Of a stretch of DNA of 64,000 bases, positions 30,237 through 63,269 are shown piece after piece. The notes below the pieces were generated by a model. The model made no database searches and was not told where the DNA came from. It was given only the letters and a program-made list of their open reading frames with translations. The stretch comes from a virus. A program made the position numbers and the translations under genes. The DNA is taken from the IMG/VR virus record IMGVR_UViG_3300027977_000007, one strand, 5' to 3'. Each line of letters starts with the position of its first letter. Position 1 is the stretch's first letter.

Positions 30237-30542
30237 ATGAAAGAGCAAATAAAAAACCTATTAAGAGAAGGATTACTTCAAAATAAAGGATTAGAAACAG
30301 CTTGCAATACAATGAGCGTGGCATCATATAAAGAAGGTATTGCTTTAATTATTAGTGCTATTGGTACACCAGAGCAAAATCCATCAATGTGGAAGCGTAT
30401 CGAGCGACCAATTAAAAACTGGCGAGATGCGGATAAATTAATTAGTCATGAAATTAAAACCAAGCGTATGTCTGGTGATTCAATGGTTGATGAGTCTAAT
30501 ACTTGGTGGTCTGCTGTTCAATCAACTATTTGTCCTAAATAA
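30237..30542 (+). CDS. small protein with IKNLLREGL N-terminal tag
   Basis: MKEQIKNLLREGLL, shared with other ORFs in the window. Confidence 0.65.
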   Translation: MKEQIKNLLREGLLQNKGLETACNTMSVASYKEGIALIISAIGTPEQNPSMWKRIERPIKNWRDADKLISHEIKTKRMSGDSMVDESNTWWSAVQSTICPK

Positions 30543-30556
30543 TTTTTTTGATTTAC

Positions 30557-30588
30557 TTGACAATTATTAATTTTATTAGTATATTTAT
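30557..30588 (+). promoter_or_regulatory. composite promoter (TTGACA-N17-TATATT; TTG-N20-TATATTTA; overlapping ATATTTAT)
   Basis: TTGACA at 30557-62, TATATTTA at 30580-87, ATATTTAT at 30581-88. Confidence 0.65.
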
Positions 30589-30591
30589 CAT

Positions 30592-31546
30592 TACATTAGC
30601 TCAAGTATCAGTCCCGACCAATAAAATGGTTTAGAGTTGTTAACGCAACAAAGGTATTGGTACAATAACAATAAATTAAAAAGTTAATAAACATGACACA
30701 AAAAATGATGGCACCTAATGTGCCAACGGCAAATATTGCTGTAAACAAATCTCGTATTAAATTATACGACAAGAATGTAGAAGTACCAACTTACTACTTG
30801 AAAAAAGGCCAAGAATTTCAAATTGAATTGGCAAACATGACTACCGATGTAGTCTTAGCAAAAATAATACTTAATGGTAAATCTTTATCTCAAGGTGGTC
30901 TGGTATTAAACCCAGGTCAGAGAGTCTTCTTGGACAGATACTTAGACGTAGCCAAAAAGTTCTTATTTGATACGTATGATGTGTCAAATACACAAGAAGT
31001 TAAAGATGCTATTAGAGATAATGGTGATATTAAGGTAGAATTCTATCGAGAAAATATCAACACCTATCAATCACCAATCGTTATTAGACCACTTGATTAC
31101 ACTTATCATCCTGATATTATAAGATATAATACTTATACATCAAATACTTATTGTGCCTCACAACCAGTGTTTGGTCGACCAAACACTAATGATAACACCA
31201 CACTAACAAGTACCTTAGGGGGTTATTCGTCTGGTCAGATTTTAACTTCGGCTTTATCAGCTAATAACTCACCACTTAGAGGGGTGTCAAAATCACTTGA
31301 AACTGGACGAGTTGAAAAGGGTTCTGACTCCAATCAAGAATTAACATCGGTTAATAAATCATTCTATTATCTACCATTCCATACGGTAACGTATAAACTA
31401 TTACCAATATCGCAAAAGATTAATACCCTTGAGGATATTAATGTAAAAAGATATTGCACATCTTGCGGTGCTAAGGTCGGTAAAACTGATAGGTTTTGCA
31501 GTCAGTGTGGGGCCAAAGCGTAAATAAAATAACTTGAGTTAATGTA
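30592..31546 (+). repeat. 15-bp inverted repeat flanking the zinc-ribbon gene
   Basis: TACATTAGCTCAAGT (30592-30606) vs ACTTGAGTTAATGTA (31532-31546): 14 Watson-Crick pairs plus one G-U. Confidence 0.85.
30693..31523 (+). CDS. hypothetical protein with C-terminal zinc ribbon
   Basis: C-terminal YCTSCG...FCSQCG; beta-rich N-terminal domain. Confidence 0.75.
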   Translation: MTQKMMAPNVPTANIAVNKSRIKLYDKNVEVPTYYLKKGQEFQIELANMTTDVVLAKIILNGKSLSQGGLVLNPGQRVFLDRYLDVAKKFLFDTYDVSNTQEVKDAIRDNGDIKVEFYRENINTYQSPIVIRPLDYTYHPDIIRYNTYTSNTYCASQPVFGRPNTNDNTTLTSTLGGYSSGQILTSALSANNSPLRGVSKSLETGRVEKGSDSNQELTSVNKSFYYLPFHTVTYKLLPISQKINTLEDINVKRYCTSCGAKVGKTDRFCSQCGAKA

Positions 31547-31547
31547 T

Positions 31548-31576
31548 AAAAAAAAGGAGCATAATGCTCCTTTTTT
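31548..31576. terminator. bidirectional rho-independent terminator
   Basis: A8-GGAGCA-TAA-TGCTCC-T6 between convergent genes. Confidence 0.85.
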
Positions 31577-32060
31577 ATTTGCTTATAATTTGTTGTATGT
31601 CATCAAAACTAACTGAATCATTTATATACCAGAATCTATCAGCATCTCTAAAAGTATCTTCACCATCAAAACCATTTCCTAAGATATAATTAGATGACCT
31701 AAATAAATACAAATCTTGACTATTATTATCCTTATGGTGCCATGCTATGTCAGTAATCTCATCTAGGGCTTTATTAAATGTTTCTTCATTATTAAAACCG
31801 TAACCACTTAAACCCCACTCTGGGTCAGAATTCCACATTCCACTAACAGGGTCTTCTTTTGGTTCACTTTCTAAATACACACCTTTAGATTTTCTTTCTT
31901 CATAATCAGCCATTGCTTCCTCATAGGTATCGTACCAAGCTTGCATATGTCCACTAAAATTACGTTCTATATCATTTTCTGGTGAATCAGTCCAACGTAA
32001 AAATAGCATCGTATCCTTATTTAAACCCTCTCTTAATAGCTTTCTTATAAGAACTTTCAT
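31575..32060 (-). CDS. acidic hypothetical protein with IRKLLREGL tag
   Basis: MKVLIRKLLREGLN. Confidence 0.7.
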   Translation of the reverse strand: MKVLIRKLLREGLNKDTMLFLRWTDSPENDIERNFSGHMQAWYDTYEEAMADYEERKSKGVYLESEPKEDPVSGMWNSDPEWGLSGYGFNNEETFNKALDEITDIAWHHKDNNSQDLYLFRSSNYILGNGFDGEDTFRDADRFWYINDSVSFDDIQQIISK

Positions 32061-32234
32061 TTTTTATACTTAATAATATTATCTTTATTTGAATTTTTAT
32101 CAAATTCATCTTTATCTATAAATTCCCACATATTATTTTCAGCCTTTCTTTTATAGTATAAATTAGAACCATCAATATCTCTAATTTGATATTCAAATTT
32201 GGATTCAACTAATAAACCCTCTCTTAATAGCTTT
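32022..32234. repeat. 22-bp exact direct repeat encoding the tag in two adjacent genes
   Basis: TAAACCCTCTCTTAATAGCTTT at 32022-32043 and 32213-32234. Confidence 0.85.
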
Positions 32235-32251
32235 TTTATATGTTCTTTCAT
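32057..32251 (-). CDS. small protein with IKKLLREGL tag
   Basis: MKEHIKKLLREGLL; ATATTTAT (32263-32256) lies 4 nt before the ATG. Confidence 0.65.
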   Translation of the reverse strand: MKEHIKKLLREGLLVESKFEYQIRDIDGSNLYYKRKAENNMWEFIDKDEFDKNSNKDNIIKYKK

Positions 32252-61420: not shown

Positions 61421-61744
61421 TTATGATAATAATGTGTCAATCTTTTTTTGTAAATCTGATTTACTTATGACACCAACCATTCGCTCACTTATTTCCCCGT
61501 CTTTAAATAATAGTAATGTTGGGATATTTCTAATCCCATAGGACTTTGCAACTTCACCACATTCATCAACGTCAATCTTACCAATACCAATATTGGTTTT
61601 ATCGGTGTTATCTTCAGATAACGCCTTAATAATTGGGGTTAAGGTTTTACATGGGCCACACCATTCTGCCGAGAATTGTAATAGGGTTATTTCGTTATTC
61701 TTTAAAACATCTGTAATGTTTTTTTCTGTTACTTCTAATACCAT
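61421..61744 (-). CDS. trxA: thioredoxin
   Basis: FSAEWCGPCK, KIDVDE, YGIRNIPTLLLFKDG. Confidence 0.95.
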   Translation of the reverse strand: MVLEVTEKNITDVLKNNEITLLQFSAEWCGPCKTLTPIIKALSEDNTDKTNIGIGKIDVDECGEVAKSYGIRNIPTLLLFKDGEISERMVGVISKSDLQKKIDTLLS

Positions 61745-61803
61745 TTACTTAAATTTTTATTTTTGTTATTGTTATAAATATATAAAACTAAACCCAAATA
61801 GCA

Positions 61804-62058
61804 ATGACAGACTCAGATTTAATCCTTAATTTTTTAAAGCGTGAATATACCAATGAACACCCAGTAATTTATCTTCTCATTAGTGGTAAAAACAAAAGTT
61901 CATATGTAACGGCTACCAATTCAATTCATAATCTAACCAATGCAATCTTTATTGATTCAGTTAAAGAAGAAATTATTAAACTTAGCGTTCAAGAATTTAT
62001 TAGTCTAAAACAATCAGAATATAGTACTGGTAAATTAAAGACTAAAGCTATCTATTAG
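61804..62058 (+). CDS. hypothetical protein
   Basis: 84-aa ORF. Confidence 0.5.
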   Translation: MTDSDLILNFLKREYTNEHPVIYLLISGKNKSSYVTATNSIHNLTNAIFIDSVKEEIIKLSVQEFISLKQSEYSTGKLKTKAIY

Positions 62059-62337
62059 CTTGGTGTTATGCGTGTTTACCTTAACCATTAAACGTACAGG
62101 TATCTCAAATATCACATACTTCCTTAATAAAAAATAATCGATAAAGTACTTGTTGCGTTCAGCAACACCCATATTAAATAATTTTTCTAAGATAGAATCT
62201 ATCGTTAGATAATGGCTTGATTGTCGTGGACTTAAAGTATCATGTTTTAGGTTTTCACCAAATATCCTACAGTAAGACTGATAATCACTACAATATGACT
62301 CTAAGTATAATGTTAATGTAACCTCACAGATTATCAT
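62035..62337 (-). CDS. hypothetical protein (start uncertain)
   Basis: Open frame; MIICEV at 62337 chosen to avoid overlap with the divergent gene. Confidence 0.35.
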   Translation of the reverse strand: MIICEVTLTLYLESYCSDYQSYCRIFGENLKHDTLSPRQSSHYLTIDSILEKLFNMGVAERNKYFIDYFLLRKYVIFEIPVRLMVKVNTHNTKLIDSFSL

Positions 62338-62392
62338 ATATACATGGTTATCAAATATTGTCAATTTATTCAATTTGTTAATATTTATAAGT

Positions 62393-62656
62393 ATGTTTAA
62401 TGATTTTGATAAATATATAATGTTAAAGTTCTTGACGAACAATTATCCTGTGATAAAAATAAAACATAATAAACGTTTTAAACGGGCTATAACATGTCAC
62501 GATGGTACACGATATTTTTTATCCAATACTACCACGCAACAAAGTTTAAGAAATCACTTAAGCCAAGTATTAAATAGATTGTTTATTTGTGATGATACTA
62601 ATTTTATTTCTATGGTCTTAGATAATTTTTCACCAACACGACAAAAAAAGCCTTGA
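62393..62656 (+). CDS. hypothetical protein
   Basis: MFNDFDKY start 4 nt after ATATTTAT (62381-88). Confidence 0.55.
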   Translation: MFNDFDKYIMLKFLTNNYPVIKIKHNKRFKRAITCHDGTRYFLSNTTTQQSLRNHLSQVLNRLFICDDTNFISMVLDNFSPTRQKKP

Positions 62657-62759
62657 TGTAGTTCCAATATGTAAATATTGGAATTACCGTAAGTAAATAA
62701 AATATACTAATATGGCCTTCGCCACATAAGCCTAATGCATGTTTAATTATTTCTATCAT
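62610..62759 (-). CDS. small membrane protein
   Basis: MIEIIKHALGLCGEGH plus hydrophobic segment; promoter TTG(62807-05)-N20-TATCTTTG(62784-77). Confidence 0.6.
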   Translation of the reverse strand: MIEIIKHALGLCGEGHISIFYLLTVIPIFTYWNYIKAFFVVLVKNYLRP

Positions 62760-62822
62760 TCTATTCGTATTTCTTACAAAGATACGAATAATATTTTTAA
62801 AAGACAAATAATTTACCCAGAA

Positions 62823-63269
62823 TTATTTATAAACCTCTAGGATAATTTCCTTAACAACCAAATTACCATTAGAATCATTAACCATAACAACCTCAACTTC
62901 ATTACCAATAGTAACTTGACCACTACCCGTATTTTCTTCGACATTAATCATGGCCCAATCTAAGCTTATCGGTAACGTGATTACATCTTCATTATCATTA
63001 ACGTAGTAATAAACTTCAATATCAACTTCTGTCGGCCCTGTAATACCATATAAGCTAATGTCCTTGATTCCCCAGCTTCTAGCCTCAATCTCGATGTCAT
63101 AATATACCGTGGCTTTGATTGTTGGTATTTCACTTATTTCATTACCCTTATAGGTCGCACGATATGTGCTAAAGCTTAACACAACTTCCCTACTATACCT
63201 ATTATCTACCTGTTCGGTTAATCTAGATTTTAAACGCTTTAATTGACTTTCAGTAATTATTAATTTCAT
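62823..63269 (-). CDS. acidic beta-rich protein with LIITESQL tag
   Basis: MKLIITESQLKRLKSRLTE; ATATTTAT at 63288-63281. Confidence 0.7.
   Translation of the reverse strand: MKLIITESQLKRLKSRLTEQVDNRYSREVVLSFSTYRATYKGNEISEIPTIKATVYYDIEIEARSWGIKDISLYGITGPTEVDIEVYYYVNDNEDVITLPISLDWAMINVEENTGSGQVTIGNEVEVVMVNDSNGNLVVKEIILEVYK

Follow-up and report, generated by a model that had tools for sequence, protein, structure and literature searches.

Why do small virus proteins that otherwise have nothing in common share the same short peptide? This question is raised by a 64,000-nucleotide stretch of virus DNA (hereafter the window), bases 27177-91176 of the 97.6-kb IMG/VR virus record IMGVR_UViG_3300027977_000007. 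A prediction made earlier from this DNA proposed that many of its dissimilar proteins bear one of two tags, an IKKLLREGL-like peptide (class A) or an LIITESQL-like peptide (class B), which would address them to the phage head. We favor a version of this idea, to which we assign a probability of roughly 0.55: that the peptides are cleavable capsid-targeting leaders of a system that resembles that of phage T4 but uses leaders non-homologous to those of T4. The window has a GC content of ~31%, and the nearest cultured relative by capsid protein is Flavobacterium phage immuto (38% identity). Since CheckV places the completeness of the 97.6-kb record at 29%, a full genome of ~300-350 kb is expected. 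The record comes from a giant uncultured T4-like phage.

All of the peptides quoted in the original prediction were found at the positions it gave. A back-translated class A pattern, I-[KR..]-[KR..]-LLREGL, matched the window five times (30249, 32048(-), 32239(-), 54976 and 56761), with 0 matches in 100 dinucleotide-preserving shuffles of the window. The class B pattern LIITESQL matched twice (61360(-) and 63263(-)), also with 0 matches in the shuffles. Four class A copies, those of the genes at 30237, 32251, 32060 and 54964, begin at residue 5 of the open reading frame (ORF), and the fifth forms the C-terminus of a DUF5661 protein. A profile scan had been suggested as a check, and a profile built from the tags of relatives recovered these strict window copies. 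They are given below with the length of each gene product in amino acids (aa), the independent E-value (iE) of the profile match and, where noted, the position of an upstream motif, ATATTTAT.

30237-30278, plus strand: class A leader MKEQIKNLLREGLL of a 101-aa gene (30237-30542); profile iE 1.7e-6.
32210-32251, minus strand: class A leader MKEHIKKLLREGLL of a 64-aa gene (32057-32251); profile iE 2e-7; ATATTTAT at 32256-32263, 4 nt upstream.
32019-32060, minus strand: class A leader MKVLIRKLLREGLN of a 161-aa gene (31575-32060); profile iE 1.7e-8.
54964-55005, plus strand: class A leader MKSIIKKLLREGLD of a 177-aa zinc-ribbon and HExxH gene (54964-55497); profile iE 1e-8.
56758-56796, plus strand: C-terminal class A copy, ...SIKRLLREGLNY and then stop, of the DUF5661 protein (56371-56796); profile iE 8e-5.
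61328-61372, minus strand: class B leader MKKKLIITESQLGRL of a 109-aa gene (61043-61372); profile iE 1e-4; ATATTTAT at 61377-61384, 4 nt upstream.
63210-63269, minus strand: class B leader MKLIITESQLKRLKSRLTEQ of a 148-aa all-beta gene (62823-63269), with two I/L-x-E sites (ITE-7 and LTE-19); profile iE 7e-7; ATATTTAT at 63281-63288.

The claim that dissimilar proteins share tags held for these five class A and two class B copies; three further members that had been proposed, at 55490, 61041 and 58173, were missed by the profile. The leaders persist in homologues: an orthologue of the 101-aa gene in relative L023 likewise bears the leader, 13 IMG/VR homologues of the 109-aa gene carry the same one, that of the 148-aa gene is kept in 27 homologues, and the C-terminal tag of the DUF5661 protein is retained in two (L129 and L131). 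Further copies lie in the same record outside the window: a 251-aa protein carries MNINIKRLLREAL, a 374-aa protein encoded among tail genes carries MKLIINERQL, and a 141-aa protein encoded between sheath and tube carries MTKIKITESQY. The adjacent class A tags at 32019-32048 and 32210-32239 (-) differ at 1 of 26 nt on unrelated cargos, which suggests recent tag duplication or gene conversion.

Both tags are widespread in related phages. An ATG-anchored class A pattern was found in 49 IMG/VR stretches, whose proteins together with the four window copies gave 56 proteins in 26 cargo clusters once the tag was removed. The class B pattern was found in 72 stretches, with 20 cargo clusters, so that the two tags together occur on at least 46 unrelated cargo families. 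Several tag-bearing contigs belong to close relatives with capsid proteins 74-79% identical, two complete genomes, of 353 and 362 kb, each have the gene for a Peptidase_S77 (S77) prohead protease, and class B-tagged fragments carry S77 and 610-630-aa gp23 genes. The tag contigs are pieces of 300-360-kb phages of one clade with S77 and gp23. The complete 362-kb relative has ~12 class-A-like and ~5 class-B-like leaders, and class A is the largest group of common N-termini in that genome. Another group of common N-termini in this relative (G002) is one in which 11 proteins cluster (L170-L188; e.g., 143681-145111, 148525-150333 and 163552-164640), ~7 of which start ...KxHGDKYDYS...; this group is probably a paralogous family of homing-endonuclease-like proteins.

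The conservation of class A acts on the peptide. In a set of 46 distinct class A starts, the codons for Gly, Leu, Arg and Glu vary at constant residues (Gly12: GGT 19, GGG 14, GGA 11 and GGC 2; Leu9: TTA 20 and CTT 17), a pattern of synonymous variation that indicates selection on the peptide. The class A search pattern itself fixed several positions; position 4, which it left free, is hydrophobic in 38 of the 46 starts. An unanchored search of IMG/VR for exact IKKLLREGL returned 39 distinct copies, 35 of them N-terminal, 3 internal and 1 outside any ORF.

The putative cut sites of the tags (slash, cut) are LLRE/G in class A, and IITE/S and L-(T or N)-E in class B. T4 gp24 begins MAKINELLRE, followed by STTT, and we take it from the T4 literature that gp21 cuts this protein after residue 10. 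The T4 internal proteins ipII and ipIII both begin MKTYQEFIAE. The propeptides of gp24 and of the T4 internal proteins are 10-20 residues long, and T4 Alt, which starts MELITE/L, is processed at both ends, with ITE-6 as the N-terminal and LTE-619 as the C-terminal site (PMC5694885). The earlier reading that LRE and ITE fit the gp21 pattern was borne out, as they have the same form as gp24 ELLRE/S and Alt LITE/L; its LKE example, 55490, was missed by the profile. In the T4 capsid-targeting sequence (CTS), targeting depends on residues 4 and 7, and processing on residues 8 and 10 (PMC9026906). Numbered backward from the Glu, they correspond to P7, P4, P3 and P1, and their class A equivalents, I5, L8, L9 and E11, are invariant in the 46 starts, though fixed by the search pattern. 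T4 gp21 (L053) also contains, near its C-terminus (residues about 188-196), ...KEITESQTAE..., with the same ITESQ as class B, a match that may be fortuitous or linked to the proposed C-terminal self-processing of gp21.

The enzyme presumed to cut the leaders, the S77 protease, is encoded in a head module on the minus strand, at 32.3-43.3 kb of the window. The module runs in the order large terminase, portal, 259-aa protein, 146-aa protein, Peptidase_S77, 409-aa acidic protein, gp23-family capsid protein and HNH endonuclease, which matches T4 20-67-68-21-22-23-segD.

38110-41494, minus strand: portal (39428-41494, Portal_T4; PF07230 2e-74) and two genes in the core positions (259 aa and 146 aa), arranged as T4 20-67-68.
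37320-38039, minus strand: prohead protease of the T4 gp21 family (Peptidase_S77; PF03420 7e-25; phrog_207).
35973-37202, minus strand: acidic 409-aa protein in the scaffold position (gp22 slot), by synteny with T4.
34052-35944, minus strand: major capsid protein, gp23 family (PF07068 6e-74), with the predicted maturation site QLLSE(60)/STT.

The protease is 33% identical to T4 gp21, whose His85 and Ser140 are matched, within conserved blocks of the alignment, by His103 and Ser166 of the phage enzyme. Residues 53-104 of the capsid protein align by BLAST to residues 3-53 of T4 gp24, so that LLSE-60 falls on gp24 LLRE-10. The predicted maturation site of the phage's own capsid protein would thus have the same form as the class A tag.

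The site also holds its place when the leader changes. The 161-aa cargo (family A1) has 33 homologues, whose N-termini are of several kinds: variants of class A, a third leader type (MSxDIRKMIDKVKNFKQFVNE), further short leaders, or no leader at all. In this family, [LIVMF]-x-E was found in 24 of 24 leaders regardless of leader type, ending 3-11 residues before the conserved core and exactly 8 before it in 17 of 24. Shuffled leaders gave a mean of 12.9 of 24 and never 24 in 2000 trials, and equal-length windows of cargo gave a mean of 4.6, a significance that is inflated by the relatedness of the A1 sequences to one another. The third leader type is carried by homologues P0007, P0012, P0014, P0017 and P0020-P0022; P0024 and P0027 have no N-terminal leader and end in an IRKLIRxxI-like helix.

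The leaders were also separable from the cargo in structure. In AlphaFold models of the 161-aa and 148-aa proteins (mean predicted local distance difference test scores of 87 and 86), the leader of the former is a low-confidence helix (residues 2-11) that lies apart from a confident core starting at residue 18, and residues 1-21 of the latter, likewise a helix and loop, are of low confidence, with a core from residue 24. These models show the leaders in flexible extensions outside the folded cargo. Tags were also found between domains. In L005 (1274-2015, minus strand) and L052 (701-1478, plus strand), a 114-aa GNAT domain is joined in frame, with no stop codon, to the same tag and cargo as those of the window gene 54964-55497, giving GNAT-tag-HExxH fusions. 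A 459-aa ORF on the minus strand of L036 contains IKKLLREGLL twice, at the N-terminus and at residue 171, between its two domains. Most tagged proteins have one cargo domain, and two-domain proteins were seen only in L005/L052 and L036.

Most of the cargos had no family match. Searches of the window's tagged proteins against Pfam and PHROGs returned DUF5661 only, which bears out the earlier assignment of that domain (Pfam E=1e-13; 56371-56796). The HExxH peptidase that had also been named has the motif and no Pfam match, and the description of one cargo as acidic beta agrees with the AlphaFold model of the 148-aa class B cargo, which is all-beta. Foldseek found no match in the PDB at E<=0.001 for the models of the 161-aa and 148-aa cargos. 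The cargos of relatives include ART-PolyVal (PF18760, 8e-13), GNAT (PF00583, 2e-9) and Pol-beta-type nucleotidyltransferase (PF01743, 2.5e-19) domains, wall hydrolases (M23 with GH19, PF01551 and PF00182; PG-binding with M23), an L5 gp82-like domain, an ArdC-N anti-restriction domain (PF08401) on an 821-aa protein and, on a 312-aa protein, a PNK/CPD-like pairing of kinase and phosphodiesterase. ARTs, GNATs, Pol-beta nucleotidyltransferases, peptidases, lysozymes and ArdC are domains of proteins that have been predicted to be packaged and injected, with T4 Alt cited as the model (PMC5512222).

Tagged genes may be expressed late. In the record, ATATTTAT was found 69 times, and it lies 4-35 nt upstream of the tagged or candidate genes at 32251, 54964, 61372, 63269 and 58173; directly upstream of the 54964 gene stand a terminator and the motif (54952-54959). 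The other tagged genes sit within units led by ATATTTAT, the 101-aa gene at 30237-30542, for example, following as the second gene behind a 468-aa lead gene that has the motif at 28807. This arrangement, behind the motif or in units that it leads, is the one originally described. The sheath, baseplate hub, scaffold, protease, 259-aa and large terminase genes have the motif too, at a distance of 4-37 nt, and it is presumably a late promoter. In the complete 362-kb relative, 10 of 17 leader genes have the motif compared with 89 of 481 genes overall (Fisher p=2e-4). Tagged genes also occupy, in this phage and its relatives, a head-adjacent hot spot, the slot that immediately follows the capsid gene.

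Under the reading that we favor, each leader would be a detachable module, made up of a short amphipathic helix and, after it, a hydrophobic-x-Glu site, that marks late accessory proteins for entry into the scaffold core of a T4-type prohead. The gp21-family protease would cut after the Glu, at the class A and class B sites given above, and free the cargo inside the head, where it would stay in the virion and be delivered with the DNA. An internal copy of the tag would join two cargos by a linker that can be cleaved, and a C-terminal copy would be a docking helix without release. Core binding, cleavage, packaging and injection are steps that we infer. Nothing observed contradicts the capsid-cargo idea, which is supported by the S77 head module, the gp21-type sites, selection on the peptide, the range of at least 46 cargos, the near-fixed spacing of hydrophobic-x-Glu before the cargo core, the promoter motif and the cargo domains. 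Two of its details fail, the three poorly matching members and the release of the C-terminal copy. In its broadest form, which we put at somewhat less than even odds, these phages may be a clade of ~350-kb genomes with an interchangeable head address code, with at least three leader classes used at the N-terminus, at the C-terminus or as an internal linker, and with ~15-20 enzymes and anti-defence proteins per virion.

Several observations weigh against the targeting-and-cleavage reading. Gly12 and Leu13 are invariant beyond the proposed cut, which suits a C-capped binding helix equally well. The C-terminal copy has no hydrophobic-x-Glu upstream and could not be released, so that the original suggestion of a cut after LRE as the release step fails for this tag, and targeting and cleavage must be kept apart. 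Hydrophobic-x-Glu is itself a low-information motif in Glu-rich, AT-rich proteomes, and the inflated significance of the A1 spacing test is a further caution. In the complete relative, 7 of the 17 leader genes have no promoter motif directly upstream. No cultured phage bearing the tags was found, and the nearest cultured relative, immuto, is without class A: a search for class A with up to 2 mismatches in immuto, the 484-kb uncultured phage LR756508 and T4 gave nothing above the reversed-pattern control. Finally, the tag profiles found nothing better than an iE of ~1 in the 35-kb head-to-alt stretch of T4 and the ipII/ipIII ORFs. Homology to the T4 CTS (MKTYQEFIAE) was rejected on this absence of a significant profile match in the T4 regions scanned. 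At the level of sequence, the link to T4 is a common short motif and a common logic, not homology.

Of the alternatives, the one that survives best, although we consider it unlikely, is that the tags are docking helices for another phage hub, chiefly a Clp/Hsp100 ATPase that would unfold, remodel or degrade the tagged proteins and in this way govern timing or turnover. A candidate hub is encoded in the window.

52425-54920, plus strand: Clp/Hsp100-type AAA+ ATPase (Pfam Clp_N, AAA, AAA_2 and ClpB_D2-small), directly upstream of the tagged unit 54964-56796.

Besides this position, both complete relatives encode a Clp ATPase, and in G002 and G005 its gene is next to the tagged HExxH gene. The conservation of Gly12 and Leu13 past the putative cut would suit a Clp-recognition helix, and the occurrence of the tag at the N-terminus, at the C-terminus and internally can be counted in favor of docking. 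However, the Clp gene is linked to one cargo family only (HExxH), and the other tagged genes are scattered or stand beside head or tail genes. We know of no Clp recognition signal that resembles the tags, which also counts against this explanation, and docking leaves unexplained both the near-fixed spacing of hydrophobic-x-Glu before the cargo and the match to T4 gp21 sites. The order Clp gene, then tagged HExxH gene was seen in three genomes: at 52425-55497 (plus strand) of the window, at 238.8-240.2 kb of G002 and at about 60-61 kb of G005. This pairing, in gene order, of an AAA+ ATPase with a putative metallopeptidase is reminiscent of FtsH.

Less probable than Clp docking is that the prohead protease does cut the leaders but that the cargos are assembly or core factors, which are degraded or expelled and not injected. 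T4 gp22, gp67 and gp68 are degraded or expelled in head maturation, and this explanation draws on the same cleavage-site evidence as the targeting reading. Many cargos are small and without known function, as would suit core factors, and the leader is loosely like the N-terminus of the 409-aa scaffold-position protein, MAEKKNILEE/ALL, which is conserved in relatives. This last likeness is treated as weak because it was seen by eye only, and the resemblance to class A was not significant when the scaffold N-terminus was compared with the tag profile. Against a core role, close relatives differ strongly in their cargos, many of which are enzymes (ART, GNAT, nucleotidyltransferase, wall hydrolases and ArdC-N) that would be senseless as parts of a scaffold, and the essential core genes of the head module, which are conserved, are untagged. 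A role as expendable core components is therefore unlikely for such variable enzymes.

We give the least credence to the explanation that the gene starts are an expression or recombination cassette, with a late promoter, a very short leader and favorable first codons that serve efficient translation or gene shuffling, in which the peptide has no function. The promoter motif ends within 4-20 nt of the ATG, so that the first codons could influence initiation, and the near-identity of the tags at 32060 and 32251 would fit the duplication or gene conversion of such a cassette. It is difficult to reconcile with synonymous codons that vary at constant residues, with the C-terminal and internal copies, with the tagged genes at 30237 and 32060, which lie within operons and have no promoter of their own, or with hydrophobic periodicity and a Glu conserved across unrelated leaders. 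A purely RNA or DNA function of the tag element was rejected on the synonymous variation and the C-terminal and internal copies.

The proposed leaders were compared with three known systems. Like the T4 CTS (IPI, IPII and IPIII, and the propeptides of Alt and gp24; PMC9026906, PMC3012670, PMC5694885), they are 10-20-residue terminal peptides on unrelated, fast-evolving and, here, putatively late proteins, with an (I/L)-x-Glu end that combines hydrophobic P7, P4 and P3 with Glu at P1. The systems also have in common a gp21-family protease, a scaffold in the gp22 position, gp20 and gp23 homologues and the same gene order; Alt, processed at both ends, parallels the terminal flexibility of the present tags, and the cargos are counter-defence or host-modifying, here as predicted from domains. 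The present system differs from that of T4 in that two to three leader classes coexist without detectable homology to MKTYQEFIAE, that ~17 tagged genes are found in a 362-kb genome compared with a handful in T4, and that cargos reach 726-833 aa. It differs further in its internal and C-terminal copies, in the conservation of two residues past the presumed cut, and in being a prediction from sequence.

The cargo repertoire (H-Y-D type ART, GNAT, Pol-beta nucleotidyltransferase, zincin-like peptidase, lysozyme or wall hydrolase, and ArdC) is that of the polyvalent proteins of phages and conjugative elements (Iyer et al. 2017; PMC5512222), which are likewise encoded among late or virion genes and predicted to be delivered with DNA. 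In contrast to polyvalent proteins, which join 2-15 effector domains per polypeptide, the proteins described here are mostly separate and small, each with its own short leader, and fusions are few (GNAT-tag-HExxH and L036). In phiKZ-like giant phages (SPN3US and 201phi2-1; PMC5694885), a gp21-related protease also recognizes a three-residue motif and cuts after its Glu, many proteins inside the head undergo processing, and paralogues have identical N-terminal stretches. Unlike the present leaders, their propeptides are mostly longer than 100 residues, the motif is (A/S/G)-x-E, and the head gene order is not T4-like.

A full-text search of the literature for LLREGL and ITESQL gave no account of either peptide, and no CTS-like system described for such phages was found. 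To our knowledge, the CTS principle has so far been shown in T-even phages only. There it is established (PMC3012670, PMC9026906), and if the targeting reading is true, the principle would reach a distant and much larger group of phages, in which it would operate on a far larger scale and through several types of leader. A motif search would then list the proteins that giant phages inject ahead of their genes, making the injected proteome of uncultured phages predictable from sequence. Proteins on such a list would likely be mostly counter-defence and host-takeover factors, most without a known fold, and a large pool of unknown proteins would become directly testable. The tags would be a natural plug-and-play handle for protein delivery, and the leader system could be used to study how a scaffold core recognizes a short helix.

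The three candidates missed by the profile fared differently. The profile, judged at E<=10 for these genes, gave no match for 55490 (VKILLKEHL), 61041 (IRRILREHY) or 58173 (VKVKESAL).

60997-61041, minus strand: divergent class-A-like leader MSYRGKIRRILREHY of a 107-aa gene (60718-61041), with an orthologue in G002.
55490-55525, plus strand: weak class-A-like start MSNVKILLKEHL of a 291-aa helical gene (55490-56365); no profile match.
58105-58173, minus strand: weak class-B-like start MSNTKKTVKVKESALVELIENIV of a 64-aa gene (57979-58173); no profile match.

The start at 61041 is plausible as a divergent member of class A because its orthologue in the complete relative G002 (MDLKKKIRKVLRENY) groups with class A leaders by N-terminal clustering; IRKLIREEL leaders, akin to that of 61041, also occur in cargo family A1. 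The starts at 55490 and 58173 were rejected as tag members for want of a profile match. In L011, the homologue of the 58173 gene reads ...VRINESDLVNVLDKIVNEAV.

Two further features of the head module were seen at its downstream end. A 530-aa HNH/homing endonuclease gene (32310-33902, minus strand) directly follows the capsid gene, in the slot of T4 segD, and in relatives a tagged 259-aa gene occupies the slot downstream of the capsid gene in place of the endonuclease. The capsid protein itself (34052-35944) is 630 aa long and was matched by its Pfam model in two pieces, which implies that, compared with T4 gp23, ~240 residues are inserted (about residues 105-340); relatives, at 610-630 aa, keep this insertion.

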